Notes: generated from the letters alone by a model not told the origin. A DNA stretch of 64,000 nucleotides from a virus (IMGVR_UViG_3300013281_000008:1-64000); one strand, 5' to 3'; shown: positions 3,071 through 55,055, numbered from the stretch's first letter. A program made the numbers and translations.

Positions 3071-3722
3071 CCGTTACTTCTCCGTTACAAAATGGAGGAT
3101 TCTTGAATACAGCGGAAGCTATTAATATAGCCGCCGCTTGATCTTCGTCCTCCCTAACCAAATTTAAATCATAAAGCTCATTTGCAGCCCTAATATAAGC
3201 ATCCTTCTTCGTAAATTTACGAAGCTTATTACCTTGCTCGTCTTTTCGAACGACCTTCTTTCCGGTCTTCTTCTTAAGACGATAGATCTTAGCATTATTG
3301 CTCTTTTCAGCTTTCGAGAATTGTGCTCCCATTAAACGCTTCCAAACTCCATCTCTAATATAAACAACATCTAGTTGGGTCTCGAATAATATATCTATAA
3401 CACAGAAATGAATAAATTCCAAGATCTTTTGAGAATAATTATTCTTGCTTCCAGTTGTTTCTTCTATTGCGATTATATCAATTTTACCATACTTTTGAGA
3501 TAAGTCTCTGATTCTCCTCATGATTTGCTCAGCCATCTCGATAGCAAATATACGATAACCCCAAGGATACCCTTCTTTTTTCTTCTTTTCCCTAAAGAAA
3601 TCAACTAGATGGATAACCCCACTAGTTAGGAGCTTTCCGTCCTGAACCAGAGCAAATCCAGTTTTAGTGCTTAAATCAAGCCCCAGAACTAACATTACTT
3701 TTACCATCCTTATATTCAACAT
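3060..3722 (-). CDS. RuvC-like Holliday junction resolvase
   Basis: LGLDLSTKTG (RuvC-I), IAIEE (RuvC-II), late D..AA.LIA; located at the end of the recombination operon; true start may be slightly downstream. Confidence 0.7.
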   Translation of the reverse strand: MLNIRMVKVMLVLGLDLSTKTGFALVQDGKLLTSGVIHLVDFFREKKKKEGYPWGYRIFAIEMAEQIMRRIRDLSQKYGKIDIIAIEETTGSKNNYSQKILEFIHFCVIDILFETQLDVVYIRDGVWKRLMGAQFSKAEKSNNAKIYRLKKKTGKKVVRKDEQGNKLRKFTKKDAYIRAANELYDLNLVREDEDQAAAILIASAVFKNPPFCNGEVTGGK

Positions 3723-5478
3723 GGACTATATTGTGGACTGAATTCTTAATTAGGCTATTATGTTCTACAATCAATGTAGACCCTTCCAGCTTTTCAAATA
3801 GCTTTAGAAAGCGATTCATCGAAAATTCGCTGAGATTGCTAAAGGGTTCATCGAAGATCCTGAATTGGAATCCATTCTTAATACAAACAATGCTATTTAG
3901 AGCTAAGCTAACTGCCAATTCCACCCGACGCATTTGGCCTCCTGAAAGAAGTCCAAGTGAAAGTTCTTTATCATTAATGTTTATCAATGTTTGAATCTTA
4001 GAAAGCTCGCCTTCCTCACCAAAGTTAGTAAATCTAATAGAAATAGGATGATCGAATAGGTCAACCAAAAGCTCATTTGTTTTAGCTGATAAGAACTCTA
4101 GAATTCCTTCAAATACATATTTCTTGATTTCCCTAAAACTTTCCTTAAGAGTCTCATACTTAGAGCTTAGTGATGTATTAGTTTCTCTTTGAGCGTGGTA
4201 TAAAGAAAGCTTTTCAGATTCTGCTTTGATATCAGATTCAAGCTTCTTAATCTTAGCATCTAAATCATTGACTGCTAAATTGGTAGAATTCTCTAGTTGC
4301 TTCTGGTGTTGTTGGATAAGGAATTCAGACTTCTCAATCTGAGCTTTAAGATTCTGTTCTCGCTTCTCTAACTGTTCGGCTTCGACAAGTTTAGCTCGTA
4401 ATTCTTCCAACTGTGTCTTAATTTCTAGATACTGAGTTTCATTCAATGAAGCAAGTTGTTCAGAAAGCTTTAAGATATTGGCTTCCCGTTCCTTAATTAC
4501 ATTTTGGAGTTGATCTATTTCCTTATTAATCTTGTCTCGGTTATGCACCATTTGACCACAGGTCGGACATTCGGAAGGGTTGTTTAATCCGTCTAACTTC
4601 TTCTTGTTATCAACGAGAGCATTACGAAGGGTATCGATCTTAAATTTCAAACTTTCAGCTGTCTTTTTAATGTCATAAGAAGAAAAGTATTTAGCTTCTA
4701 CTTTTCTAACTTCCAGTTTGAGTTCTTCTGCATTAGATTTAGCCGATTGTCCTTGTAGCCCTTGAAGTCTCTCCAGAATCTTCTTTTCCTCAGCAATCTT
4801 ATTCTGCAAATCTAGTTTGATGTATTCCGCTTGCTGCACAAGCTTGTCCTTAGACGCTTTAGTCTCCTGAAGATTATTATTATGAATCGTAATAATACGA
4901 GCTAGGCTATCAATCTGAGCATCTATCTGAACTGATGCAGTTTTAAGATCTCTAAGCTTCTCATGACAAAGTTTCCTAGCTTTGTCGAACTGAGAGAGAT
5001 TCTGAATCTCAGAAAGAATACGAGCCTTCTCTTCTTCGGAAGCTGTAATAAACTTACTAAAGTTATTCTGGGCAAAGTATACAGTTTGGCAATAGGTATC
5101 GAAATTGAAACCAATTAACTGCTCTATTAGTTTCTGGGTTTCTTTAGCATCCTTACCGAGTATAGGCTCAGATACTAGATTCTTATAGATACCTAGAAAA
5201 TTAGGATTTCTAGTTCGTCGGATTCGAATGCCATTCTTAAGGATAACTTCCACGTCGCAGGACTTCTCGCCATATCGGATAACCTCATCGATCTTTGTTT
5301 CCTTAGGCAGCTTGCCAAACAAGCACCAACTGACCGCATTGAAGATCGAACTCTTGCCACTACCTTCGCTCGTCTGGTCGGTTTCATTCCAACCAGTAAT
5401 TAAGGTAATACCATCTTTGACCTCGAACAGAAGTTCAGACCAAGAGAGGAAGTTCGTCGCTTTAACTCCTGCAATCAT
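3676..5478 (-). CDS. SbcC/Rad50/gp46-like recombination ATPase
   Basis: Walker A GSGKSS, long coiled coil with CPTC zinc hook, signature LSGGQ, Walker B FDEP. Confidence 0.92.
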   Translation of the reverse strand: MIAGVKATNFLSWSELLFEVKDGITLITGWNETDQTSEGSGKSSIFNAVSWCLFGKLPKETKIDEVIRYGEKSCDVEVILKNGIRIRRTRNPNFLGIYKNLVSEPILGKDAKETQKLIEQLIGFNFDTYCQTVYFAQNNFSKFITASEEEKARILSEIQNLSQFDKARKLCHEKLRDLKTASVQIDAQIDSLARIITIHNNNLQETKASKDKLVQQAEYIKLDLQNKIAEEKKILERLQGLQGQSAKSNAEELKLEVRKVEAKYFSSYDIKKTAESLKFKIDTLRNALVDNKKKLDGLNNPSECPTCGQMVHNRDKINKEIDQLQNVIKEREANILKLSEQLASLNETQYLEIKTQLEELRAKLVEAEQLEKREQNLKAQIEKSEFLIQQHQKQLENSTNLAVNDLDAKIKKLESDIKAESEKLSLYHAQRETNTSLSSKYETLKESFREIKKYVFEGILEFLSAKTNELLVDLFDHPISIRFTNFGEEGELSKIQTLININDKELSLGLLSGGQMRRVELAVSLALNSIVCIKNGFQFRIFDEPFSNLSEFSMNRFLKLFEKLEGSTLIVEHNSLIKNSVHNIVHVEYKDGKSNVSSGA

Positions 5479-6433
5479 TTAAAATGCTCAGTCCTAACTG
5501 TTTAGTTTCATCATCTAGCTTTTTGATATTAGAAGCCCAAGTGGTGAACTTAACTTCATTACTCTGGTCCTCTTGTATCTCTAGAGACTTTACCACAGAA
5601 GTGGGTTTTAAGACAAGCTTGACTGTCGGATACTGCTTAAATTTCCTAGCCCAAATATTGATATTCTCAGTAGACCCTTCTAAAACGACCCTATAGTAAT
5701 CCTTGGGATTTTCGTACATCTTCGGAGATTTCTCAATTAAATTATGGATCTCAGTTGCGTCTACATTATAATAATTGGTTATATGATGGGGGAAGTCCGT
5801 TGGTATAAGCTTTGTAATACCGTTATCTAGGTCCCCAATGCCTAGATATTTAATTGGCTCAGTCTCTCCAAAACTATGGCTAAACGGGGTTCCGAGATAG
5901 GTTATATTATCTTCCTTCTGATAGGAATGAAAGTGGCCACTGACCACCCATTTAAAACTGGCTAATTCTTTCCTGTCTATACCGTGTAAATCCTTGATTC
6001 CATTACCATAGTCAAAATGACGGATACTGGCATGACAAACTAAGCTAGTACCGTCATTTTTAAACACCCCTAGAAACTGCCTAAAATCCTCTAGATTGTG
6101 AATATAAGGCATGAATAGTATCTTACCTTTAACCATTGGCTTATCAACGATTGTGACGTGTTTTAGAGCGTTTAAAGTATGGAGGGAGTGTTCGGAGGTA
6201 TAATTATTGAACTGGTCGTGGTTACCTACCAAAATAGTCCATTCTAATTTGGAAGCTTTCAGATTGTCATAAATAGTATTAAGACAGCGGCCTCGAACAA
6301 TTTCCTTGGTGTCTAGTAGATCTCCTAAAAGGATAACTGGATTACCCAGATCCTCAATAATCCTGAATAGCTTATTAATCTTATCTAGATTATCTGGTTT
6401 AGCGTGAAGGTCGCCAACGAACGTATGGTTCAT
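5462..6433 (-). CDS. SbcD/Mre11/gp47-like metallophosphoesterase nuclease
   Basis: GDLH, GD, GNHD, GHFH motifs; adjacent to the SbcC-like gene. Confidence 0.92.
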   Translation of the reverse strand: MNHTFVGDLHAKPDNLDKINKLFRIIEDLGNPVILLGDLLDTKEIVRGRCLNTIYDNLKASKLEWTILVGNHDQFNNYTSEHSLHTLNALKHVTIVDKPMVKGKILFMPYIHNLEDFRQFLGVFKNDGTSLVCHASIRHFDYGNGIKDLHGIDRKELASFKWVVSGHFHSYQKEDNITYLGTPFSHSFGETEPIKYLGIGDLDNGITKLIPTDFPHHITNYYNVDATEIHNLIEKSPKMYENPKDYYRVVLEGSTENINIWARKFKQYPTVKLVLKPTSVVKSLEIQEDQSNEVKFTTWASNIKKLDDETKQLGLSILNDCRS

Positions 6434-8618: not shown

Positions 8619-8674
8619 AATCCAGTTAATTCATTCTTCAAATTCTTTATAGCTGTTTGACATTCTATTTCAGT

Positions 8675-8704
8675 ATTATATCTCCCTAAACTATATATTG
8701 TCAA
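8675..8704 (-). promoter_or_regulatory. sigma70-type promoter TTGACA-N18-TATAAT
   Basis: Perfect consensus hexamers in the intergenic gap upstream of the recombination operon. Confidence 0.75.
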
Positions 8705-8754
8705 GTTAGATATATTATCTTGTGTCTTTACTAGAAATAAGAAAATCCATTCCA

Positions 8755-23227: not shown

Positions 23228-23443
23228 TCATAAAACATTTGTTTCCTTTAAATCTTCAATAAGAAGATTTAGCTGACTCACAAGCTGATCCCTAAGCTGA
23301 TCCCTAAGCTGACCCCTAAGCTGAATCCCAAGCTGATCATCAAGCTGACTCCAAAGCTGACTCCAAAGCTGATCCTCAAGCTGACTCCAAAGCGGTCTCC
23401 CAAGCTGACCTTTAATATCTTCTCCTAGAAAGTCTGCTTTCAT
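23228..23443 (-). CDS. xxQL-repeat cassette C (12 units)
   Basis: Family head, units and tail present. Confidence 0.8.
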   Translation of the reverse strand: MKADFLGEDIKGQLGRPLWSQLEDQLWSQLWSQLDDQLGIQLRGQLRDQLRDQLVSQLNLLIEDLKETNVL

Positions 23444-24387
23444 TTGCGCTTCTTCCTAAACTTATTTAGCATAGACTTTTGGAAACCATATGGATCTTCA
23501 TCGTCTTCACTATCTTCATATGGATCGTATTCATCATTTTCAGCGTCTAGATGAGCTTCCATCATTTGCCTAGCTTTCAGAATAGCATCTTCAAACTTAA
23601 TACCAATACAAAGGACGCTAATAATAAGATCTTTAATATGGTCAATTGTAAAACCCTCGGTTTGCCGAACCCAGTATTCTACATCAATCTCATCTTTCAC
23701 TTTAGCTTTAAGGAACTCCCTTCTAGCATTAGCATCTGGAGTAGGAACTTCAATCACAAGAGCAAATCTAGAAGGTCTATTTCGAATACGAGGAGGAATC
23801 CTATCTAAATAATTAGTTGTAGCGATGTAAAGAACATTCTGAATCTGCATCTCACCATCTAGTAGGGAGAGGAAAGAGCCTTCGTCTCGCTCAAGCAACT
23901 TGTCCAGTTCTTCAAAGATAACTAGAATTCTTCTTTCTTGCTTCTCAATACTTCTGATAATATCCACAGCTTCAGTAAGTAGGCTGGGAGATGGACAGAA
24001 GAATACAATACTTCCGTTATTAACTTCTTTCTCAATTACTTTCGAAACTATACTAGTTTTTCCCGTCCCAGGTAAACCCCAAAGTAGAATTCCACGCTTG
24101 TAAACCATCCCATACTTAGCATAACGACTCTTAACATCTTCCGACCAAAACTGCTCAATCTCACTGATAATTGTAGAACCAACGAAACTGGGAAGTTCAA
24201 CTAGGTCATCAGTCATACTGGACATATTCTTAAAGAACATCTCTCCAGACATATCTCGATGAATTTGATAAATACCAGCTGGGAACTCTTTTTTTCCAGG
24301 ATAGTTCTTTCTTTTGAAATAGACTACTTCTCCGTTAGTGAGAAAGCCATCGTATTCCTTCTCAATTTTGTTTATAATTTTAGGCAT
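23440..24387 (-). CDS. AAA+ ATPase
   Basis: GILLWGLPGTGKT, FEELD, TTNY, NRPSRF (second region of homology). Confidence 0.9.
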   Translation of the reverse strand: MPKIINKIEKEYDGFLTNGEVVYFKRKNYPGKKEFPAGIYQIHRDMSGEMFFKNMSSMTDDLVELPSFVGSTIISEIEQFWSEDVKSRYAKYGMVYKRGILLWGLPGTGKTSIVSKVIEKEVNNGSIVFFCPSPSLLTEAVDIIRSIEKQERRILVIFEELDKLLERDEGSFLSLLDGEMQIQNVLYIATTNYLDRIPPRIRNRPSRFALVIEVPTPDANARREFLKAKVKDEIDVEYWVRQTEGFTIDHIKDLIISVLCIGIKFEDAILKARQMMEAHLDAENDEYDPYEDSEDDEDPYGFQKSMLNKFRKKRK

Positions 24388-31879: not shown

Positions 31880-32082
31880 TATTTCTTGCCTCCTTCGATA
31901 ACCTTCAATTTAAAGTCTACACCAGATTTATAAGAATTGTCTAGATCAGCCATAAGTTGTTGAATTTCCAGTCCTATTTTATCTAGCAAAAATACATTAT
32001 CTTGCACTTCCCCGGCGAACATTAATAACATATTGATTTTGTTATTGATTTCGGTAACTTCCTTATTAGTTAAGATATTCAT
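31879..32082 (-). CDS. hypothetical protein
   Basis: 67-aa ORF ending KVIEGGKK, which encodes the SD of the next gene. Confidence 0.55.
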   Translation of the reverse strand: MNILTNKEVTEINNKINMLLMFAGEVQDNVFLLDKIGLEIQQLMADLDNSYKSGVDFKLKVIEGGKK

Positions 32083-32276
32083 TACTTCTTTCCTTTCAGA
32101 AAGCGAACTCGGTAAGCCTTACTTTCCAAGGTTTTTCCATCTAAAACGTCATTACCAGCAACTTCTAAGTTATAGGTATTACTGATGATATCAGCCAATA
32201 ATACAGCATCGTTAGCCCCAACTTCATCCATTCCAACCACTTCAGCATCTTTATATCTAATTAAAGCTTTATACAT
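32082..32276 (-). CDS. hypothetical protein
   Basis: 64-aa ORF with GGAGG SD. Confidence 0.55.
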   Translation of the reverse strand: MYKALIRYKDAEVVGMDEVGANDAVLLADIISNTYNLEVAGNDVLDGKTLESKAYRVRFLKGKK

Positions 32277-32547
32277 AATCCCTCCGATTAAGCGAACATT
32301 CCGAAGCTAGCACCCACTCTAAATACGATACCAGCTTTTTCTAGCTTTAGGAACTGTTCCCAACCAACCAAAACGTCTTTAAATAAAGGAATCTTATAGT
32401 TCCCTTCCCGTTGATACATCTTAACTCTAACGTAACTTTCCATATTATACTCCGTCCATCCAATCAACCAAAGCTTCCCCGATCCTAATCACCAGAATCA
32501 CCGGCAGTGCAATCAATCCTATCACATAATCCATATTCAAATACTCT

Positions 32548-32564
32548 TGCAAATCCCATACCAA
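32548..32564 (-). promoter_or_regulatory. sigma54 -24/-12 site TTGGTATGGGATTTGCA
   Basis: GG-N10-GC with TT flanks, directly ahead of the first leftward early ORFs. Confidence 0.6.
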
Positions 32565-32762
32565 CTCTCTTATTCCCTCCCCATTATAAACATTCCCAAT
32601 CATTCTAACCTCTTATGTATAAAATCCCTCTAATCCCAATAAACATACCCCTTACAATAAATGCTCATATTAAACAATACATGTCTAATATAGACCAATA
32701 ATTGCCGTACTACATAAGATTACATTGGTTTAGATCTAGGATTGGTCATTGAATGATGGATT

Positions 32763-32890
32763 GGCTTTTGAAAAGCCCATACTTATAGTTTCCATAGCCT
32801 TCGAAATTGCATTCCCTAGCTATCGAAAAAGCCCATACTTATAGCTTCCTAAACTACCGAAAAAGCATACTTTTCGAAGAAAAGCCCCAT
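32763..32890. repeat. 18-bp direct repeat AAAAGCCCATACTTATAG and palindrome GGCTTTTGAAAAGCC
   Basis: Copies at 32771-32788 and 32827-32844; degenerate copies near 32858 and 32879. Confidence 0.75.
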
Positions 32891-33092
32891 CTGCCACCTT
32901 CCCCGCTTCCACCCGACCTGCTCGGTAACGCTCTAATAGCCCCGCCATTCAACTTTGGCCGTTCCTTGCACCCAAGGTATCCCCCCGCTCCTAATCTTTC
33001 AATATAGGGCATCCTGCTGCGTTCTAATCCCGCTACAACTTGCATACCTATAGCCCACTATGCAATCCGGTCAAGCTTCCCTCGGCTCCCCC

Positions 33093-33353
33093 TGCAAGTT
33101 CTATGCCAACAAACCTGCTAATCCGCCCGCTTACTTTGGCACACTTCTTGCACCCCCCTGGTCAGCTAGACTTGGCACGAATCTTGCATCTCTCAACTGC
33201 TCCCCTACTCTGCATAAAATGCATACCCACGCCTTCTCTCTGCATTATATACATATTCGCATCCTAGCACGATTCTTGCACCCCCTGCAATTTCCATACC
33301 AAGAGACCCCCTTGCTGGGGACAAGCCACCTCCCATGTTGGCACAGTTATTGC
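33093..33353. promoter_or_regulatory. cluster of sigma54 -24/-12 sites on both strands
   Basis: (+) 33136 TTGGCACACTTCTTGCA, 33172 TTGGCACGAATCTTGCA, 33337 TTGGCACAGTTATTGCT; (-) 33093-33109 TTGGCATAGAACTTGCA, 33286-33302 TTGGTATGGAAATTGCA; variant at 33264. Confidence 0.7.
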
Positions 33354-33703
33354 TATATATGAGAGCACACCAACTTACTTTCCTGTATAATTATTAAAAC
33401 CTCCAGCCATCCATCTTTCCCCTAAACTACCCCCCTACCAAATGGTCGATTTAACCCCTTATAAGCCACCTGGGAGCAAAATTATTTCCCTAATTTTCGA
33501 TAATTATAGGCACCTAGAAAGCAGCCAACTGGTACTTTATAATGTGCCACTCCTTGAATCCCTTACCTCCCGAAAATGTAGGTCTGGGGTGGCACCAGTT
33601 GGGCGGTTTCAAGGCTCTGGGCTAACCCTGCTTTAAACATTATTTTTCCTTTTAATTTTCCTGCAATTATTACTCCATTGCCGATAATATAAGATTTCTA
33701 GAT

Positions 33704-34261
33704 TTAGGCAACTTTTATTTTATCCAAAAGGTGGCAAAAGAATAGGAAGGTATTTATAGCATCATCTTTCGAGCTATGTTTCTGACCTTGGAACTTCAGT
33801 CCCATCTTTTTCATGCTATTAGCCAGACCGCCTTTACCCATAAAGCCGTTGGTTAAGCAATAACCAATATAGATCGTTTTAACGTCAATCCAGCGGCGTC
33901 CAAAACACCACTTAAAATCAGCCCCAGATGCTTTAAGTTGCTCGCCTAGGAACTGAGTATCTCCGCCGCCCCAAGTGAGGCAATTAATAAAGCTACCAAA
34001 TGCTATATGAGTAGATCTCAGCTTCTCATATTGAACCAATAAGGGTTGACCCTCGTTGGCTAACTTCTCGTCCGTTATACCAGTCAGCTCAATTATAGGC
34101 TCGGTAAGTGGTTCATCAATCAATACAAACAGATCATCGGAAGCTAGAATTTCCCGGGTTTTTATGTTCCCGATACAATAGCCAATACTTATGATTTTAT
34201 TACTAGGTTGCGCTAGTTCTAGATCTATGGTCGTAAAGATCTCAGTCTGTTTAGGATTCAT
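33704..34261 (-). CDS. DEDDh (DnaQ-like) 3'-5' exonuclease
   Basis: IDLEL, WG..D, DVKT, H...DDA.NT motifs. Confidence 0.8.
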   Translation of the reverse strand: MNPKQTEIFTTIDLELAQPSNKIISIGYCIGNIKTREILASDDLFVLIDEPLTEPIIELTGITDEKLANEGQPLLVQYEKLRSTHIAFGSFINCLTWGGGDTQFLGEQLKASGADFKWCFGRRWIDVKTIYIGYCLTNGFMGKGGLANSMKKMGLKFQGQKHSSKDDAINTFLFFCHLLDKIKVA

Positions 34262-34267
34262 TATTTA

Positions 34268-34576
34268 TTATTCTTGATTCTTATTAATTTTTAAATTATT
34301 TGCCCAATTTGCTACCCAATTATCATAATCTTTAGGAACTGGATAAAAATTGTCTTTAAAAGTATTATCTTCATTTTTGAACTCAAAATCTTCCATCCAT
34401 CTTTCCGACCAATCACCAACATTAGTTGCGAACCATGGTTTATTTTCCCAAGGATATTTAATCCAATCCCAAATAATAATTTTAGTTGGCTTCTCAAGAG
34501 TTCCATCTAAAAGCTGAAAAACTGATCCATTTTTACCTGATTTTAGGCTAGCAATTAATGCATCTTTTAAGTTCAT
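34268..34576 (-). CDS. hypothetical Trp-rich protein
   Basis: 102-aa ORF. Confidence 0.55.
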   Translation of the reverse strand: MNLKDALIASLKSGKNGSVFQLLDGTLEKPTKIIIWDWIKYPWENKPWFATNVGDWSERWMEDFEFKNEDNTFKDNFYPVPKDYDNWVANWANNLKINKNQE

Positions 34577-34833
34577 TATTTAAGCTTTAACCCCCTCTTA
34601 AAGATATACTTTAGATCGTCCAGATCCTGCTCCATAGCCCCGATTCTACCCTCCAAAGTATCCTGCAGGGCGTTGGTAGAGCCGTTACAGAATTCGATAG
34701 TTCGGGTATTAATTTCTAGAACGGAAGCAATGATCTCATTGTCCTTTTCCTTCATTTCCACGATTGTGACCCCTTGGCCGGTAACTATTCCACCAAGTAC
34801 TAAGATAGCAATTAAGTATAGTGCGTCTTTCAT
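34576..34833 (-). CDS. small membrane-anchored coiled-coil protein
   Basis: N-terminal TM helix. Confidence 0.5.
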   Translation of the reverse strand: MKDALYLIAILVLGGIVTGQGVTIVEMKEKDNEIIASVLEINTRTIEFCNGSTNALQDTLEGRIGAMEQDLDDLKYIFKRGLKLK

Positions 34834-34967
34834 AATTATCCTTTCCTCAGCAGGCTTTTCACAGCCGCTACGTTAATTACCAACATTGTTACAAAGATAA
34901 GCGGAATGTTAAGAAGTTGGATAATTTGCAAGGTTTCTACGTGTTCCAATAAGAATGCCATCATATG

Positions 34968-35423
34968 CTATTTTACCTCCAGTTCGTAAGTTATTTCCAT
35001 ATCGTCCATATTAGTTTCCAAGAATCCAAGTTTCTCATGAAGATGTATGGATTTCACATTGTCGTGCTTTACGTAAGCTATAATTTTCTTGATGCCTAAA
35101 TTTTTAGCCTCTTTTAAAGCTAAATCCAACATATCATTAGCTAAGCCTTTTCCTCTAAAATCTTTATCCAAGTGAAAGCCCCAGATCTTAACGTCTGGAT
35201 CATCTGACTTAATATCGTTCCTAAACTCAACGAATCCTATAATCTGATTAGATTCTCCGTCAATATAACAAAGCTTAGGATAATCAGTATGTTTAAAGAT
35301 TCCCACATGCTCAGCCCAAGTAATAGGGGCTTTAGCCTGAGCGAAGTAGCAAACCTCCTGATCATTTCTAAGCCGAAATGTATCTTTCAGGTCGCCTTTA
35401 GCCATTTTTCTTAGATAATTCAT
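34968..35423 (-). CDS. GNAT N-acetyltransferase
   Basis: FRGKGLA acetyl-CoA motif; N..SI.L.EKLGF. Confidence 0.85.
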   Translation of the reverse strand: MNYLRKMAKGDLKDTFRLRNDQEVCYFAQAKAPITWAEHVGIFKHTDYPKLCYIDGESNQIIGFVEFRNDIKSDDPDVKIWGFHLDKDFRGKGLANDMLDLALKEAKNLGIKKIIAYVKHDNVKSIHLHEKLGFLETNMDDMEITYELEVK

Positions 35424-35717
35424 AGAATTTTATTAAAAATCCAAATAATTAATTCAACGGCTATATCGGCAAATAATATAGCTGTAAATAAGGATAGCCA
35501 TTCTAATATGGCTTTTTTTCGTTTCTTGGAAGTTTTAACCAATTTCTTGGGCTTAAATTTTAAAACAGTTGCCATACTTTGCTATTCTTCCGGAAATAAT
35601 AACCAATATAAAAGAGACCGTTCTAATACATATTCTATTGCTTCTTCGGAATAATTATAATATTCCAGAAAACTATTAGCCCACTTACAATAATTCACAT
35701 TAATACCTTCGCACATA

Positions 35718-36083
35718 TTAAAAATGAATAAAAAAGCTTAGTTCGCTATTTAGGTGACTATAGATTTGCTTGCCCTTTTTCCCAAGAGATTTCGAGCGTT
35801 TTTTAGCCTCTTTAATAATATCTTCTAGTTCTTCAATATGAACATCCACCGAGACGTGGGGTGTTCCGGTTTTCTTATTAATTTTAGTATAGGAAGTCCT
35901 AGAAATATTCTTCTTATCTTTTAGAATATATTCTGCGTCATTTGGAAGCTCTTTACCCCGCCTATCGTGCAGAATGTAGTACCCATCTTCCATGTCAAGA
36001 AACTTAAACTTTCCCAGTTTCTTCTTTCCAGACATTTTCCAATAAATATTTTGGAATTGTTTTACTAGATCTTTCATTCCCAT
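35718..36083 (-). CDS. hypothetical basic protein
   Basis: 121-aa ORF. Confidence 0.55.
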   Translation of the reverse strand: MGMKDLVKQFQNIYWKMSGKKKLGKFKFLDMEDGYYILHDRRGKELPNDAEYILKDKKNISRTSYTKINKKTGTPHVSVDVHIEELEDIIKEAKKRSKSLGKKGKQIYSHLNSELSFFIHF

Positions 36084-36265
36084 TCCTTGAATTTCTTTAA
36101 AACTTTATCTTCATAGGGACGAATGGGAGTTGCTTTCTCGTATTCTTCAAGCGCTTCTGCCATTTCCTTAATTAGTGATAAAGCTTGATCTATATCCATT
36201 CCGAGCTGTCCGCGAAAGGACTCTGTGTTCTTAGAAAGCCGTTCATATCCGTTAGGGAGTTTCAT
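36074..36265 (-). CDS. hypothetical protein
   Basis: 63-aa ORF. Confidence 0.5.
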   Translation of the reverse strand: MKLPNGYERLSKNTESFRGQLGMDIDQALSLIKEMAEALEEYEKATPIRPYEDKVLKKFKEWE

Positions 36266-36543
36266 TACATCATTCCTGCTTTTTGTGCTAAAGTCTTAAC
36301 TATGTGGTTGATATCATTCTGATTTAGAACAAATCGTTCAAATAATGTTCGAACTTCTTGTGATCTAAGAATCTCGTCTTGGATTCTTTTAGACATTAGA
36401 TTGAAATCAGCATCAGATTGTTCATAACGCGCCAAATTACTTTCTAGTTTCTCAATCCGGGTCTTTAGATCCGCAACCAGATCTTGCAACTCTCCGAGTT
36501 TATTACAATGCATTATTATTCTCCGTATCTTCCGACTTAGCAT
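36265..36543 (-). CDS. coiled-coil hypothetical protein
   Basis: 92-aa ORF. Confidence 0.5.
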   Translation of the reverse strand: MLSRKIRRIIMHCNKLGELQDLVADLKTRIEKLESNLARYEQSDADFNLMSKRIQDEILRSQEVRTLFERFVLNQNDINHIVKTLAQKAGMM

Positions 36544-36688
36544 TAATAATTACTTGAGTTCTACCAGTATCGGGATTCTTAATTAGTTGAAATAACTGAA
36601 CTTTCTCTTCAATCCAAAAACCTTGCGAGTCTTTATAACGAAGATAATCTTCATTATCTTTTCTCGTTACAATCATCTGATAGCTCAT
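36503..36688 (-). CDS. hypothetical protein
   Basis: 61-aa ORF. Confidence 0.45.
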   Translation of the reverse strand: MSYQMIVTRKDNEDYLRYKDSQGFWIEEKVQLFQLIKNPDTGRTQVIINAKSEDTENNNAL

Positions 36689-36689
36689 A

Positions 36690-36908
36690 TTAATTACCAG
36701 AAGCGGCTTGCAATTCAGAAGTCGTTGAGTTCAACGTAGCGACATTGCCGACTAGACGGCCTTTAACAACAATCACGTTAAGACCTTTAGCCGTCAGATC
36801 TTGAACAGTAGTTGCCAATTCAGCTTCCCCGCGCACTTCTCGCGCAACTGGAGAATTACCATTAACCGTAACAACTGTGAAATAAATACTACCCTTCGTT
36901 CGTGCCAT
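36690..36908 (-). CDS. small hypothetical protein
   Basis: 72 aa, AGGAG SD, high-expression-like codon use. Confidence 0.6.
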   Translation of the reverse strand: MARTKGSIYFTVVTVNGNSPVAREVRGEAELATTVQDLTAKGLNVIVVKGRLVGNVATLNSTTSELQAASGN

Positions 36909-36978
36909 ATAAAAACTCCTATATAAAATTAATAATAAAATACTATTAATTGGAGTTTATAATAATTATGAAATTAAG

Positions 36979-37293
36979 TCAAGCAGTCTTTTGCTTTTGT
37001 CTGGAAGATTTGACTTTTGGAAGCTTTTCAATCTTCTTCTCAAGGAAGTCGTAGCTAAGTCCTTGATCTGACAGCTCTTTTTGATGACGACGGATATGTT
37101 CTACAAAAGACTTATATTGAGGATCAGAAGTCTCAATAATGCCCTTGTTTAAACAATCCATCAGATGTAGAGTATGACTTTCGATATGAGATGCGTGATC
37201 ATCCAAAGGACAATAGGAGACGTGATTACCGCGAACGGTGGTAATATTCTCCTTTCTAGCCCTAGCGAACGTTATTTGAATAATCTTTTGCAT
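36979..37293 (-). CDS. hypothetical protein
   Basis: 104-aa ORF. Confidence 0.5.
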   Translation of the reverse strand: MQKIIQITFARARKENITTVRGNHVSYCPLDDHASHIESHTLHLMDCLNKGIIETSDPQYKSFVEHIRRHQKELSDQGLSYDFLEKKIEKLPKVKSSRQKQKTA

Positions 37294-37459
37294 CTAAAAT
37301 ACTTATTAGATTTCCACTAGTTGAAGCAATCCGCTCTTCAAAATAATGTCCATTATCACATTTATAAGAATGGAATATAATCTTTTGTTCTGGTATATTA
37401 TCGACTTCCCAGCTAATAACTAAATGAACAGGTTTATCGCAATGTCTACAACCATACAT
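37262..37459 (-). CDS. small zinc-ribbon protein
   Basis: CxxC ... CxxxH. Confidence 0.5.
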   Translation of the reverse strand: MYGCRHCDKPVHLVISWEVDNIPEQKIIFHSYKCDNGHYFEERIASTSGNLISILDAKDYSNNVR

Positions 37460-37503: not shown

Positions 37504-37514
37504 TTAATAAGTAT
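37504..37514 (+). promoter_or_regulatory. TTAATAAGTAT candidate late promoter
   Basis: Intergenic, at the start of the plus-strand arm. Confidence 0.7.
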
Positions 37515-37537: not shown

Positions 37538-37807
37538 ATGGCAGATTACGGAGATCAGTCAGATACACTTGACGAAGGGCAGATATTTAGGGCTATCTAT
37601 GATAAGCCTAAAGTCGCCATTCGTACTCTAGCTTTTAATTCCCTAGTTCCTGAAGATTATGATGAAATTACTTTAGCGTATATAACGTCGGGTAACGGTA
37701 CTGGAGAAATAGGAACTGTTTTATATAAAAAGGCTTCAGTAACTGTTGCTGCCTTATCTTTAACCTATGATAGTTCAAATCGTCTAATCGATGTATTAAG
37801 AGTTTAA
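37538..37807 (+). CDS. small virion-associated protein (putative)
   Basis: First gene of the structural arm. Confidence 0.55.
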   Translation: MADYGDQSDTLDEGQIFRAIYDKPKVAIRTLAFNSLVPEDYDEITLAYITSGNGTGEIGTVLYKKASVTVAALSLTYDSSNRLIDVLRV

Positions 37808-49762: not shown

Positions 49763-51310
49763 ATGTCAGGTGCAAATATTGTCAGCACGCTGTCTGGTCT
49801 GTTCAAAGAACAGTACAGTGACAAGCTCATGGATCTAGTTCCAGATGGCGTCAAGATGCTTCGAATGGTTCCATTCGTAGAATCTAGTAAAGAAATCGGT
49901 AATTTTTACCATCAGCCTTCTGTTTAAGCATAGGGCCCCTTATTAGAAATGATAAGGTAAACACTCTTTGAATTGCTGGAAACTCCAAAATAGGGACAAT
50001 CAGCAGCCAAGCTGTAGAAATACAGAAGGTTCAACGACTAGGTCATATGACCGTACCGTCAAGCGACGGGAAGTGGAGAGCATCCGAAAGGATGAAGAGA
50101 TAGTCTAATCTTGCAGGTAACTGCAAGCTGCTCGAAAGAGCGGACAAGATGTAGCGAATCTTGTTGAATATAAATGGTGCTTTTGGCACAAGAACACGGA
50201 CTCACGTACGCCCCGGCGAACGGAACGGCCTTCTCCCTAGGAGATGCCATTGCTGCTCGTCTTCAAGATGCTCAAATCGCTGGCGCTCAACTTCTGTTGC
50301 GCTCCTCGATCAGCTATGAAGCCGCTGCCCGTGCGTCGAACGATAAGAAAGCTTTCGTGAAAGCGACCAGCCTTCTTGTCGAAAACATGCTCAACTCAAT
50401 CAGCAAGCGATTGGAAATCTCGCTTCTCTACGGACAATCAGGCCTTGCCTCGTCTGTAGCGACGACTAACCAATCTGCTACTTCTACCCGTCTGGAAGTT
50501 CCTGCGGCTTCTTGGGCCCCTGGAATCTGGTCTGGATCGGAAAACGCTGTTTTGGTTGCGTACAACGGTACAACCCGTCTGAACGCTGCGGATACCGCTG
50601 GTTACACGGTTACTTCGGTTGATCTTCTCAACCGATATGTATTCGTGTCTGCATCTAGTGCTGATATTACGGCGATTGACGCTGCTTCTGGTAGCATCAC
50701 GCTGTACTTCCTCAGTTCAGTGGTTGGTTCCGGTGGAGGTCAAACCTTTAACGAAATGGCCGGTCTTGATAAGATCATTACGAACACTGGCTCGCTCTTC
50801 AACATCAACGCTTCTACGTATGCGTTGTGGAAAGGTAACTCCTACAGCGCCGGATCTGCGTCACTTAGCTTGACAAAGATCTTGAACGCCGTGGCGTTTG
50901 CCGTGGAACGTGGTCTTGATGAAGATGTAGTTTGCATGATGTCTGCAAAGACGTGGGCAAACATTGCTTCTGATCAAGCTGCTCTTCGTATCTATGATCA
51001 AAGCTACAAGCCCTCGAAGCTTGAAAACGGTGCTTCTGAGTTCGTGTTCAACGGACAAAATGGTCGCATCGAAATCCACACTTCAATCTACGTCAAAGAA
51101 GGTGAAGCATTCGTGTTTCCTCTTAAGAGACTTAAGAGAATTGGAGCTATGGATGTTAGCTTTAAAATGCCTGGTCGTAGCCAACAAGAAGACTTCTTCT
51201 TGGAGCTATCTAATGCTGCTGGGTACGAGCTCAGATGTTATACTGATCAAGCAATCTTCTGTGATTCGCCTGCGAAACTCGTGAAGATTACGAACATCGT
51301 TAATAGCTAA
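49763..51310 (+). CDS. major capsid protein, spliced: exon 1 49763-49918, exon 2 50177-51310 (429 aa)
   Basis: Exon 1 MSGANIVSTLSGLFKEQY...FYHQP joins in frame to VLLAQEHG...; follows the scaffold gene; high-expression codon bias. Confidence 0.85.
49919..50176 (+). mobile_element. group I intron (IA-like, 258 nt, ORF-less)
   Basis: P AAUUGCUGGAAA, Q AAUCAGCAG, R GUUCAACGACUA, S AAGAGAUAGUC; P1 GCCU|U:AGGGC with U.G; P10 AAGCAU:GUGCUU; terminal omega-G at 50176; P7.1/P7.2 hairpins. Confidence 0.92.
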
Positions 51311-51412: not shown

Positions 51413-52849
51413 ATGAAAGAATGTTCTAAATGCAAGCAGATTTTAGCTTTTGAAGAGTTTGCTAAATGTAAAGCCAATAGAGATGGTTATCAATATCAAT
51501 GTCGAAAGTGTAAGAAACTTGCAGTTGAACAAATTAAACTCCTTCACGTAGATGGAAATTATAGTGACAATATAAGTAATAAGCAATGTTCTAGATGTCA
51601 CAATCTTCTTCCTAAAGACGCTTTTACAAAGAATTCATGTCAGAAAGACGGCCTTCATAATGAATGTAAAGGATGTATGTCATTAAGGGCTAAATTACGT
51701 TATTCAAATAACAAGGATAAAATTAAAGCCCAACAGGCTAATTATTATAAGAATAATAAACATGTTAAAAATACTTATTGGCAAAAACGAATAAAAACCG
51801 ATGTACAATTTAAGATAAAAGTGGGATTAAGAAGACGTCTAAAATTAGCATTAACCAATAATTATAAGAAAGGGATGGTTATAAAGAATCTTGGCTGTAG
51901 TGTTGAGGAGTTTAAGTGCTATTTCGAGTCTAAGTTTCAACCCGGAATGACTTGGAAAGACTTTCTTAAAGGTAAAATACATGTTGACCATATTAAACCA
52001 TTATCTGCTTTTAATTTGACAGATCCTGAACAAATTAAAGAAGCTTGTCATTATACTAATTTACAACCTCTTTGGTGTGAAGATAACATTAAAAAGGGTT
52101 CGAAGTATATTAATACATTCTATGAAGATGATAATTTAAAAGTAAATATTATACCCATATCTGTTTTAGTTGGGATGGATAGACATCATTTATCTAAAGA
52201 GGTTCAAAAAACGAATAAAAGGCTTGTACAATTCTTTGATTTTGAATTGGTAGAAAGAGGATTTCAAATAACAAGCTTTGTAAAATCGGCTAGTGGACAA
52301 AATAAAAATAAGGTATTTGCTAGAAAATGTGAAATTAAAGAAGTTTCCCAAGACGATGCTAAAGGCTTTTTAGATAAATATCATATTCTAGGTGGCTCAT
52401 TAAATTTTAGATTAGCATTGGGTTTATTCCATAAAGATGATTTAATAGCTTTAGCGACATTTGGAGCACACCATAGGAATCATACTAAGAATGTATTAAG
52501 TCGTTTTGTGACTAAAATAGACTGGAATGTAATAGGTGGCTTGTCGCGACTTTCTAAAGCTGCTTATGATCAATTGGGTGAGATTTATACGTGGATTGAT
52601 TTACGCATGTCAAATGGGGATAATTGGATTAAAGCCGGTTGGATATTCGAAGAAAAGCTGAATCCCGACTATTTTTATTATAATTTCAAAGCCAATAAAG
52701 TAATTAAAAAGCAATCTCGACAAAAATCCCTGGTAAACACCCCAGACCATATGACTGAATTTGAACACGCCAAGCGAGATGGTCTAATCCGTATATTTGA
52801 TTGTGGTAAGATACGGTTAAAGTTTGACCCCAAAAAAGAATCTAAATAA
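51413..52849 (+). CDS. HNH endonuclease with Zn-finger repeats fused to a GNAT/Mom-like (Hef-like) domain
   Basis: Two CxxC..DG....CxxC repeats; HVDHI.P...HYTNLQPLW..DN..KG HNH; C-terminal ARKC.I.E...FL..YH..G...SRF...GG.SRL...D.R.S.G..W...G. Confidence 0.75.
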   Translation: MKECSKCKQILAFEEFAKCKANRDGYQYQCRKCKKLAVEQIKLLHVDGNYSDNISNKQCSRCHNLLPKDAFTKNSCQKDGLHNECKGCMSLRAKLRYSNNKDKIKAQQANYYKNNKHVKNTYWQKRIKTDVQFKIKVGLRRRLKLALTNNYKKGMVIKNLGCSVEEFKCYFESKFQPGMTWKDFLKGKIHVDHIKPLSAFNLTDPEQIKEACHYTNLQPLWCEDNIKKGSKYINTFYEDDNLKVNIIPISVLVGMDRHHLSKEVQKTNKRLVQFFDFELVERGFQITSFVKSASGQNKNKVFARKCEIKEVSQDDAKGFLDKYHILGGSLNFRLALGLFHKDDLIALATFGAHHRNHTKNVLSRFVTKIDWNVIGGLSRLSKAAYDQLGEIYTWIDLRMSNGDNWIKAGWIFEEKLNPDYFYYNFKANKVIKKQSRQKSLVNTPDHMTEFEHAKRDGLIRIFDCGKIRLKFDPKKESK

Positions 52850-53612: not shown

Positions 53613-55055
53613 GTGTCAATTTCTTTGAATATCAATGGCATAGTTTATCCTTTTCCTGTCGAAGGTGAAGAAAACTGGGGCCCAGATGTAACTAATTGGG
53701 CTCAGGCAATCACACAAGGTGCCCTACTTAAAGGAACTGGAGTACTGGGTGCTACTCAAGTTTTCACATTAACTGGGGACGTGGACTTCGGGGCCACGTA
53801 TGGTCTTCGAGTTGCTTACCTCAGATCTAGAACAGCAACTGCAGCAACTAGTGGATTAGTTAGGCTAGCCAATGCCGAAGAAATCAATTGGCGCAATCAA
53901 GCCAATAGCGCTAACCTTCCTTTAAGAGTCAGTACGGCTAACTGGCTTCAATTTAATTCTATCGATCTAGTAGATGTATCTACTGCGCAAAACTTAAGTA
54001 ATAAAGTGTTTGGATCACATTTACTTCCAACTGCGAGTAATACATATGATTTAGGATCAACTGGAACTCGTTGGAAAGATGGATGGTTTCAAGGTAATTT
54101 AACAGTTGCAGGAAGTCTCAGTGCTGGATCTGTAACATTTGCAGATTTTACTGCTACTGGAAATATAACATTAGGTGATGCAACTTCTGACACCGTCAAT
54201 GTTATTGCCAGATTTGTAAGTAATTTGATACCAAGCTCAAGTACTACTTATGATTTAGGAAGTAGTTCTTTAGTTTGGAATAATAGTTACTCAAATAGAG
54301 TATTGGTTGGTAACGGATCGACGGCAACACCATCAATTGCGTTTATTAGTGAAACTGGATTAGGCACATATAGAGATGCAAGTGGTTCAATCACTTTAGG
54401 TGCAAACACTGGCTCTCTTGCCCGATTAATTATTCGTTCGAACGATTTAAACGCAGCAACGGTTGTTCTATTAAATTCAAATGGCGGCGGTTCTGGGGAT
54501 CAATTGATCTCTTTTTGTGAAGCATCATCTTCAACTGGAGCATGGTCTGTTGGACGACACGATAGTGATTCAAGTGCTTTTAAAATTTCACAGGGATTAG
54601 TTACTTTAGGTACAAATGATTATTTTAGAGTGACTACTTCTGGTGAATTGACGCTTGGCGCAATAAGTAGTGTTCAAACACACACTATTATTGGCAATGC
54701 AGTTGCAAGACAGAATTCTTTGGGCGTTACAGTTACTGAGGATTCTTTATCAACAGTCACATTGAATGATAACCAGGCTTCTGCGACCAATGCCTTTACT
54801 TATACCGCAGCTGGTAATGAACATATTGTTCTAGATTATTCTATTTCACGAAGCACGGCTAGAGAAACTGGAACCATTCTTATTGGACAAAATGGCACCG
54901 ATGTTGAATTTAATCGCGTACACGGTGGTACTGGTGATACAGGAATCACCTTTAGTGTGGATATTAGTGGTGGTTTAGTGCGATTACGTTATACCAGTAC
55001 GAGTACTGGCTCCAGTGCAACAATGCGAGCCATTGCTCGTCGTTGGGGTTCATAA
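53613..55055 (+). CDS. fibre-like structural protein
   Basis: P...YDLGS repeats; C-terminal domain shared with the next fibre genes. Confidence 0.65.
   Translation: MSISLNINGIVYPFPVEGEENWGPDVTNWAQAITQGALLKGTGVLGATQVFTLTGDVDFGATYGLRVAYLRSRTATAATSGLVRLANAEEINWRNQANSANLPLRVSTANWLQFNSIDLVDVSTAQNLSNKVFGSHLLPTASNTYDLGSTGTRWKDGWFQGNLTVAGSLSAGSVTFADFTATGNITLGDATSDTVNVIARFVSNLIPSSSTTYDLGSSSLVWNNSYSNRVLVGNGSTATPSIAFISETGLGTYRDASGSITLGANTGSLARLIIRSNDLNAATVVLLNSNGGGSGDQLISFCEASSSTGAWSVGRHDSDSSAFKISQGLVTLGTNDYFRVTTSGELTLGAISSVQTHTIIGNAVARQNSLGVTVTEDSLSTVTLNDNQASATNAFTYTAAGNEHIVLDYSISRSTARETGTILIGQNGTDVEFNRVHGGTGDTGITFSVDISGGLVRLRYTSTSTGSSATMRAIARRWGS

Follow-up and report, generated by a model that had tools for sequence, protein, structure and literature searches.

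Why should a virus carry, in and beside a non-coding region of 1.1 kb, a cluster of close matches to the bacterial RpoN (sigma-54) promoter consensus that point in both directions, several of them towards no gene that they could serve? Sigma-54, of which a cell has roughly a hundred molecules, serves nitrogen, flagella and envelope stress in the host under tight gating, and to our knowledge its use by phages is nearly undocumented. We addressed the question in a window of 64 kb (the whole stretch of DNA that was analysed), the first part of an IMG/VR record of 83 142 bp that is 100% complete according to CheckV. Sequence comparison led us to favour, with a probability of about 0.5, a reading in which these would be real RpoN sites forming compact two-way promoters.

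Sites in the control region

The genes of the phage fall into two arms. Leftward genes run from ~37.3 kb down to position 1 and continue from 83.1 to 75.8 kb; their content is replication and accessory (family B polymerase, DnaB-like helicase, RecA, SbcCD-like proteins and a uracil glycosylase-family protein, PF03167, UDG). The rightward genes, from 37.5 to 75.8 kb, include those for a T4-type large terminase (TerL), a P22/SU10-type portal, capsid and tail. BLAST searches with the region, TerL, PolB and portal revealed no close named relative among 50 697 phage records; the best named match, a Silvanigrella phage with 30–33% identity, has no site cluster.

The control region lies within the leftward arm (Table 1). 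The sequence-only reading had described it as large and non-coding, and this was confirmed: we found no credible gene in it, ~100 related loci contain no relatives of its ORFs, and Rfam gave no match in it at E ≤ 1. Its plus strand is C-rich, with a GC skew of ~−0.43 at 32001–33000 and ~−0.29 at 33001–34000 (1-kb bins).

Sites were searched with the pattern TTGGYANNNNNNTTGCW (TTGGYA-N6-TTGCW), the background being 100 dinucleotide shuffles. The window contained seven exact matches against a shuffle mean of 0.16 and a maximum of 2. Six of the matches fall within 32548–33354 and the seventh, at 54691, is inside a late gene; the remaining 19 kb of the record had no further match, and the reversed control had none. 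The plus-strand sites were also recovered as a repeat family in a repeat search that used no prior pattern. All six sites reported by the sequence-only reading are thus present, one of them starting at 33338 and not at 33337, and so is its variant at 33264 (S5v), which lacks the GG of the −24/−12 core, while the six exact sites have the bipartite core complete. Scored against the RpoN consensus, the plus-strand exact sites have 12, 12 and 11 of 12 positions and the minus-strand ones 10–11 of 12. Weaker look-alikes occur at 32955 (TTGGCCGTTCCTTGCA, whose spacer lacks one base) and at 33507.

Table 1. Sites, promoter-like boxes and flanking features of the control region; positions are counted from the first nucleotide of the window
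Feature	Position	Strand	Remarks
S1, TTGGTATGGGATTTGCA	32548–32564	−	Points left; predicted start ~32537
Control region, non-coding, 1.1 kb	32604–33703	.	Within leftward gene arm
Two 42-nt direct repeats, each with CTATAAGTATGGGC	32771–32868	−	Resembles late-type promoter TTAATAAGTAT; points left
S2, TTGGCATAGAACTTGCA, then GGGGG	33093–33109	−	Points left; predicted start ~33082
S3, TTGGCACACTTCTTGCA	33136–33152	+	Points right; back-to-back with S2, 28 bp between 16-mers
S4, TTGGCACGAATCTTGCA	33172–33188	+	Full consensus; tandem with S3, gap 20
S5v, variant CTAGCACGATTCTTGCA (CTAGCAC...TTGCA)	33264–33280	+	AG replaces GG
S6, TTGGTATGGAAATTGCA	33286–33302	−	Face-to-face with S5v
S7, TTGGCACAGTTATTGCT	33338–33354	+	Points right; back-to-back with S6, gap 37
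DnaQ/RNase T-like exonuclease gene	33704–34261	−	Right flank of region; PF00929 in homologues
Late-type box TAATAAGTAT	37299–37308	−	5 nt before ATG of 36979–37293; heads block 33704–37293

Starts were predicted by the rule that transcription begins 11 nt after the 17-mer (PMC4591121). S5v and S6 make a face-to-face unit (33264–33302) in which only 5 bp (CCCCC) separate the two TTGCA ends; transcription is predicted to diverge from starts at 33291 (rightward) and 33275 (leftward), a distance of 16 bp. S1, S2 and S6 point at a leftward gene train, with the late-like boxes of the 42-nt repeats sitting among them. An ATG at 32534 lies 13 nt past S1, in frame with the ORF 32445–32603, and from this ATG (32534–32445, minus strand) a 29-aa hydrophobic peptide, MDYVIGLIALPVILVIRIGEALVDWMDGV, could be made.

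In front of S3, S4, S5v and S7 is the 3′-end of leftward genes. As had been noted, the plus-strand sites face minus-strand genes only: the genes across 33704–37293 are all on the minus strand, and the first plus-strand gene beyond them begins at 37538. No credible gene or RNA was found between S7 and the 3′-end of the exonuclease gene. We considered a small RNA at the inverted repeat 33513–33614 and rejected it, as shuffled sequences fold equally well (z −1.6 and −0.25) and the repeat has no Rfam hit; a peptide downstream of the rightward sites was rejected as well, the ORFs of the region having no homologues in related loci.

Conservation and geometry of the sites

With the exonuclease next to the region as query, we found homologues that led to three related contigs; alignment of the portal led to 80 of 183 related IMG/VR loci, some of them from records of 75–89 kb. 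The portal alignment was needed, as the exonuclease and TerL, each used as a single query against IMG/VR, led to distant or non-syntenic loci only. Portal identity among the relatives is ~45–60%, and none of them shows similarity to the non-coding region of the window, in nucleotides or in peptides. Still, they contain 63 exact sites against one in the reversed control (~1.1 Mb). Most of these sites are clustered in large non-coding gaps, often in two-way clusters (five sites in L036, four in L080, three or more in L088, five in L107 and six in G005). About half of 18 whole or partial records have a cluster or pair, and the relatives range from none to six sites. The core is kept across the family, while the N5 spacer and the flanks vary. 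Because divergent relatives have kept the sites but not the DNA around them, the sites are, to judge by the sequences, functional and under selection rather than a product of chance.

The phages' own TATA-type promoter box behaves differently: it is TTAATAAGTAT in the window phage, GGCTATATA in L024 and L020, and GGTATATAT in L021. An invariant motif beside drifting phage-specific promoter boxes suggests that the reader of the motif does not co-evolve with the phage, and so points to a host factor.

The two-way, interleaved layout described by the sequence-only reading proved to be real and recurrent, with similar two-way clusters in relatives and in other IMG/VR loci. The array lies between divergent arms in L024, L107 and L119, and also in L144 and L248, which are outside the family. 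This weakens the earlier view that the plus-strand sites need a special explanation, for in several relatives such sites are the mirror halves of units between divergent arms.

One could speculate that the rightward sites are relics of a rearrangement in the course of decay, or that the matches are due to chance. The order of genes in the region does vary among relatives, L020 and L024 have the exonuclease gene on the strand of the terminase whereas the window phage has it on the opposite one, and S5v has lost one G of the GG. However, the three exact rightward sites still have nearly or fully consensus scores, 0.16 matches per window would be expected by chance, and two-way clusters recur in L036, L107 and G005; we consider this explanation very improbable.

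The pairs have a narrow choice of distances. In the family, face-to-face pairs have 2–5 bp between the TTGCW ends, and back-to-back pairs have gaps of 6–8 bp or gaps ~10, 20 or 30 bp longer; in G005 the sites form a strict 40-bp lattice of alternating orientation. The face-to-face pattern with a gap of 2 was found in at least 120 IMG/VR stretches (114 unique cores), the backwards pattern in none. When the gap was left free between 0 and 24 bp, the matches listed included 7, 22, 22, 17, 35 and 4 unique units for gaps of 1 to 6 bp, and 0–5 units per gap beyond 6. Among the matches listed, gaps of 1–5 bp account for 103 of the 135 unique face-to-face units, which gives predicted starts 16–20 bp apart, and a gap of 5, that of the window unit, is the commonest class. 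Back-to-back gaps are 6–10 and 16–22 bp, with none at 0–5 or 11–14 and with smaller peaks at 29 and 37–38 bp, again among the matches listed. The gaps in the window (5 face-to-face; 28 and 37 back-to-back) fit these classes. In some loci, arrays of two or three units have periods of 40–54 bp, and G/C homopolymer runs adjoin many arrays.

The spacers of the two arms of a unit share 29% identity and are not complementary, so the unit would be no hairpin or terminator; a cruciform was rejected on the same grounds, and a terminator scan of the region was negative. By sequence, the two arms are separately specified protein sites, each with an orientation of its own. The variable gap of 1–5 bp would rotate the arms against each other by up to ~140 degrees; a protein docking independently either way would tolerate this, a repressor in the form of a rigid dimer would not. 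With core elements that abut on opposite strands and predicted starts 16–20 bp apart, inside the span of 7–25 bp expected of that class, the unit has the geometry of a putative symmetrical bidirectional promoter.

The units are placed as promoters might be. As greedy ORF calls over-call coding in non-coding DNA, we replaced the coding class with a test of open-frame length: units sit where open frames are short (median 84 versus 177 aa), and their flanking genes are divergent in 36% of cases versus 14% in the background (2.5 times). Among the family sites, 9 of 59, S1 included, have an ATG 12–13 nt after TTGCA; six of these begin ORFs of at least 25 aa, including a 104-aa gene of L021 that is called in the database. 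The spacers of 12–13 nt before these ATGs carry Shine-Dalgarno-like purines, so the sites could sit inside the leader instead of beginning it. In the relatives, small unrelated ORFs stand at the same distance from gene-proximal sites, and nearly leaderless mRNAs are predicted there. A peak of ATGs 12 nt after the site in non-family loci was discarded as an artefact of the partner arm (CATGCCA).

Two cultured phages carry the paired unit, Vibrio phage D260 (OZ195864, unit at ~105215) and Pseudomonas phage vB_PpS_SYP (OQ183418, unit at ~11958), and the D260 group has eight exact sites in 12 kb. The motif is absent from HMO-2011, and the first 14 kb of T5 have no sigma-54-type site. In D260 (our locus L420), positions 4700–6300 form a C-rich, repeat-rich non-coding stretch of 1.5 kb with several families of short direct repeats; it is near annotated DNA-transfer genes and holds a face-to-face unit, with seven more exact sites nearby.

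A large group of small phages has a layout of its own: in L144 (4760–4900), L248 (3440–3600) and similar IMG/VR loci, two or three face-to-face units with periods of 47–54 bp precede a run of GGGGGAGGGGG, then a sigma-70-like promoter and the gene of a 135-aa AT-hook protein, which heads an arm bearing the terminase gene further downstream.

Candidate readers of the sites

The six exact sites match every defined position of the RpoN −24/−12 consensus. In 112 of 114 unique paired units a purine follows TGGCAY, at a position that our pattern left unconstrained, and the classical consensus TGGCACG/A has a purine there. TGGTATG variants, which are known from nif promoters, also occur among the units. 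Both Vibrio and Pseudomonas have RpoN. That RpoN reads the sites, that transcripts start at them and that the two directions have separate roles is what we infer from these sequences.

The only hint of a host comes from L107. It is weak, and the Shine-Dalgarno-like sequences that precede many genes in the window phage conflict with it. L107 is a contig of 15.7 kb (CAZRNW010000024.1), phage throughout, that was binned in an uncultured Flavobacteriaceae MAG; its five two-way sites are at 3274–3515.

In the phage itself we detected no sigma-54 DNA-binding domain, no enhancer-binding ATPase (PF00158) and no sigma-70 region 2. No T7-type polymerase was found either, in a search that is weak, the control genomes being likewise negative. 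The AAA protein at 23440–24387, the only one that the phage has, was rejected as an activator because it is of the Cdc48/p97 type. We saw no upstream motif shared by the sites, and no upstream activator sites could be recognised.

Sigma-70 does not account for the region: it has no strong leftward sigma-70-type promoter, and TTGGCA was rejected as a −35 box since a suitably spaced −10 box is missing at most sites. A perfect sigma-70 consensus, TTGACA-N18-TATAAT, is found in the leftward arm at 8704 (minus strand), in the gap 8619–8754. The phage probably also uses host sigma-70 elsewhere, judging by such boxes, but not in the 1.1-kb region.

Of the late-type box TTAATAAGTAT there are eleven copies, and nine of these closely precede annotated starts, those of eight late-arm genes and of the gene 36979–37293. 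The promoter class, (T/A)TAATAAGTAT followed by (T/A)TATAG, is sharply defined and occurs on the plus strand at 37505, 40621, 43409, 49568, 52872, 56009 and 58350, and past the window at 65596, and on the minus strand at 37308 and 23200; it stands from a few to 25 nt before the starts of eight rightward late genes and two leftward units. As a sequence class it implies a putative late specificity factor encoded by the phage, yet no sigma-70-type gene is detectable.

Could another DNA-binding protein, of the phage or of the host, read the sites? They would then mark a packaging site, an iteron origin or an operator lattice, and the sequence-only reading had itself named a phage protein or the terminase as a competitor. 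The lattice geometry with its fixed classes of gap, the 10-bp periodicity and the 40–54-bp periods of the arrays would suit such a protein, and so would the location in large non-coding stretches between gene arms with G/C homopolymer runs beside many arrays. The paired unit is 0.7–2.2 kb upstream of TerL in 69 of the 70 loci of other phages that include TerL, and a position upstream of packaging genes is the classical place for pac or cos sites. The D260 unit, in its repeat-rich stretch near DNA-transfer genes, has a layout like that of the T5 first-step-transfer region; T5 itself, however, lacks the motif in its first 14 kb.

In the window phage the array does not have the place of a pac or cos site, since 8.5 kb and no fewer than 20 genes separate it from the TerL gene (41884), and elsewhere the motif serves 24 terminase lineages with differing small neighbours. 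Clustering of the proteins of 206 motif-bearing loci gave no family common to all: the commonest, TerL, was in 82 loci (40%) and belonged to these 24 lineages, so that the motif and its paired form are spread over many unrelated phage groups, and the 135-aa AT-hook protein was in 58 of the 206 and is absent from the window phage. The variable centre of the units argues against a symmetric dimer. Moreover, for a protein other than RpoN, the agreement of the sites with TGGCAY(R)-N4-TTGCW, the GG-N10-GC spacing and the secondary preferences would be a remarkable coincidence. The competitor thus gained from its nearness to TerL in other phages and lost by its distance here and by the want of a common reader; we regard a different reader as rather unlikely.

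Proposed two-way promoters and known systems

Under the promoter reading, the phage would depend on host polymerase and have the array in its main control region. In a face-to-face unit the −12 elements almost touch, and polymerase could dock either way, with diverging starts ~16–20 bp apart; the back-to-back pairs would keep the helical register. Leftward, S6, S2 and S1 may feed a train of small early or middle genes that begins at 32603, S1 being so close to its small ORF that the mRNA would be almost leaderless. Rightward, S3, S4, S5v and S7 would be the mirror halves that face the opposite arm in several relatives. Here the leftward block 33704–37293, driven by its late promoter, is in the way, so the rightward sites could give only non-coding or antisense transcripts or stay idle. 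The simplest account, as far as gene order tells, may be that the rightward target of the two-way units was displaced in this lineage. Activation might come from a host enhancer-binding ATPase or from a phage factor that we did not recognise.

Several observations count against promoters. Four of the seven sites of the array have no gene to serve, and back-to-back sites 26–37 bp apart leave no room between them for a classical enhancer. Where the centres of neighbouring sites are 17–30 bp apart, there is no space for a whole polymerase on every site simultaneously, and gaps with a 10-bp periodicity suggest a nucleoprotein lattice more than independent promoters.

Such points would suit a decoy: sigma-54 would bind without transcription, either in a lattice that holds the scarce host factor, silencing the sigma-54-dependent stress and repair responses or freeing core polymerase, or as closed complexes that block or insulate the region. 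High-affinity consensus sites too dense for independent promoters yet kept in helical register, the four without a gene and the failure to find an activator gene or enhancer all speak for it, and binding of sigma-54 without core polymerase is reported for strong promoters. On the other hand, there are just 6–7 sites per genome, and an array that varies in relatives from none to six sites would not be an essential fixed device. Gene-proximal sites are correctly oriented, 12–13 nt ahead of start codons, and the enrichment between divergent genes fits promoters better.

In E. coli, genome-wide binding revealed many strong sigma-54 sites that are remote from gene starts, have either orientation and are for the most part silent; decoy and interference roles were discussed for them (Bonocora et al. 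2015, PMC4591121). The E. coli sites are single, dispersed and mostly intragenic, and none makes phased mirror-image units, whereas the phage sites are arrayed. Roadblock repression by bound sigma-54 was tested there and not seen, and for the intragenic sites of E. coli it is effectively excluded (PMC4591121), which by analogy tells against the roadblock that the sequence-only reading had proposed. All in all, we find a decoy or occlusion improbable. The description of the sites as RpoN-type in that reading is supported by the consensus match, the selection and the recurrent layout; the sponge, the roadblock and the array for loading polymerase that it attached to them found no support.

The favoured two-way promoters can be compared with known systems, beginning with bacterial RpoN promoters (glnAp2, nifH, pspA). 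The core is identical, TGGCAC/TGGTAT-N5-TTGCW with GG-N10-GC and a purine after TGGCAY; the array is likewise non-coding, and some sites are correctly oriented just upstream of genes. RpoN promoters need an enhancer-binding AAA+ activator, usually with sites 80–150 bp upstream, and their classical leaders have tens of bases. Unlike them, the array has no recognised activator sites or activator gene, its sites point both ways at a packing distance of 17–50 bp, several of them lack a gene downstream, and the leaders predicted at gene-proximal sites have only 2–3 nt.

Symmetrical sigma-70 bidirectional promoters, in which 18 bp is the commonest distance between starts (Warman, Grainger and colleagues; bioRxiv 10.1101/2020.01.31.928960; PMC12825309), offer a second comparison. 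There, too, core elements of opposite strands share one spot, docking one way excludes the other, and the promoters are enriched between divergent genes. The overlap in the sigma-70 case comes from symmetry of the −10 hexamer, whereas in the phage unit two complete −24/−12 sites are interdigitated, each −24 element lying within the transcribed strand of the other. Neither a sigma-54 version of a bidirectional promoter nor phased arrays of such sites are described in the literature that we searched.

The earlier remark that lytic phages are rarely described as using sigma-54 agrees with the literature, in which we found one case, Pseudomonas phage YuA. YuA is lytic and relies on host sigma-70 and sigma-54 promoters (Ceyssens et al. 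2008 via bioRxiv 10.1101/2023.10.13.562163), and its sigma-54-type promoter P015 had promoter-trap activity and a mapped start (bioRxiv 10.1101/2023.10.13.562163). It is a single conventional promoter in an unrelated phage, as opposed to a two-way array.

Finally, the array resembles lambda cosB, with its R sites (the packaging repeats), and the T5 injection-stop region in that a number of short repeats with a defined orientation occupy a large non-coding stretch close to packaging or first-entering genes. The lambda and T5 repeats are phage-specific and read by phage proteins; here the repeat is a universal host promoter consensus found across unrelated phages.

What is new here is the common geometry of the sigma-54-type units, their spread and their cultured carriers. 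A perfect RpoN consensus is the sole conserved element in the control regions of a family of ~80-kb phages. Tentatively, and as a possibility on which we would not insist, the mirror-image units may represent an undescribed, widespread phage device acting on host sigma-54. They could be bidirectional promoters that fire without a classical enhancer bound to the DNA, through a host activator from solution or an unrecognised phage factor; or they could be a phased lattice that captures sigma-54, for the phage or away from host stress responses. If this were true, dependence on RpoN, or manipulation of it, would extend to a sizeable group of uncultured phages and to some phages of Vibrio and Pseudomonas; the presence of the unit in two cultured phage groups makes the finding directly testable.

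If RpoN does read the sites, the early programme of many environmental phages would hinge on a host factor which in turn requires an ATP-driven activator, infection would be sensitive to host physiology, and the unit would be a new bidirectional promoter architecture of sigma-54. If it does not, a widespread phage DNA-binding system would have converged on the RpoN site, possibly competing for it.

Two further features were seen in the rightward arm of the window. The head-gene region has a group I intron (Rfam RF00028, 94.8 bits) at 49909–50127 on the plus strand, just before the ORF of the major head protein, and the intron is followed by a 478-aa HNH or homing-endonuclease-like gene (51413–52849, plus strand).
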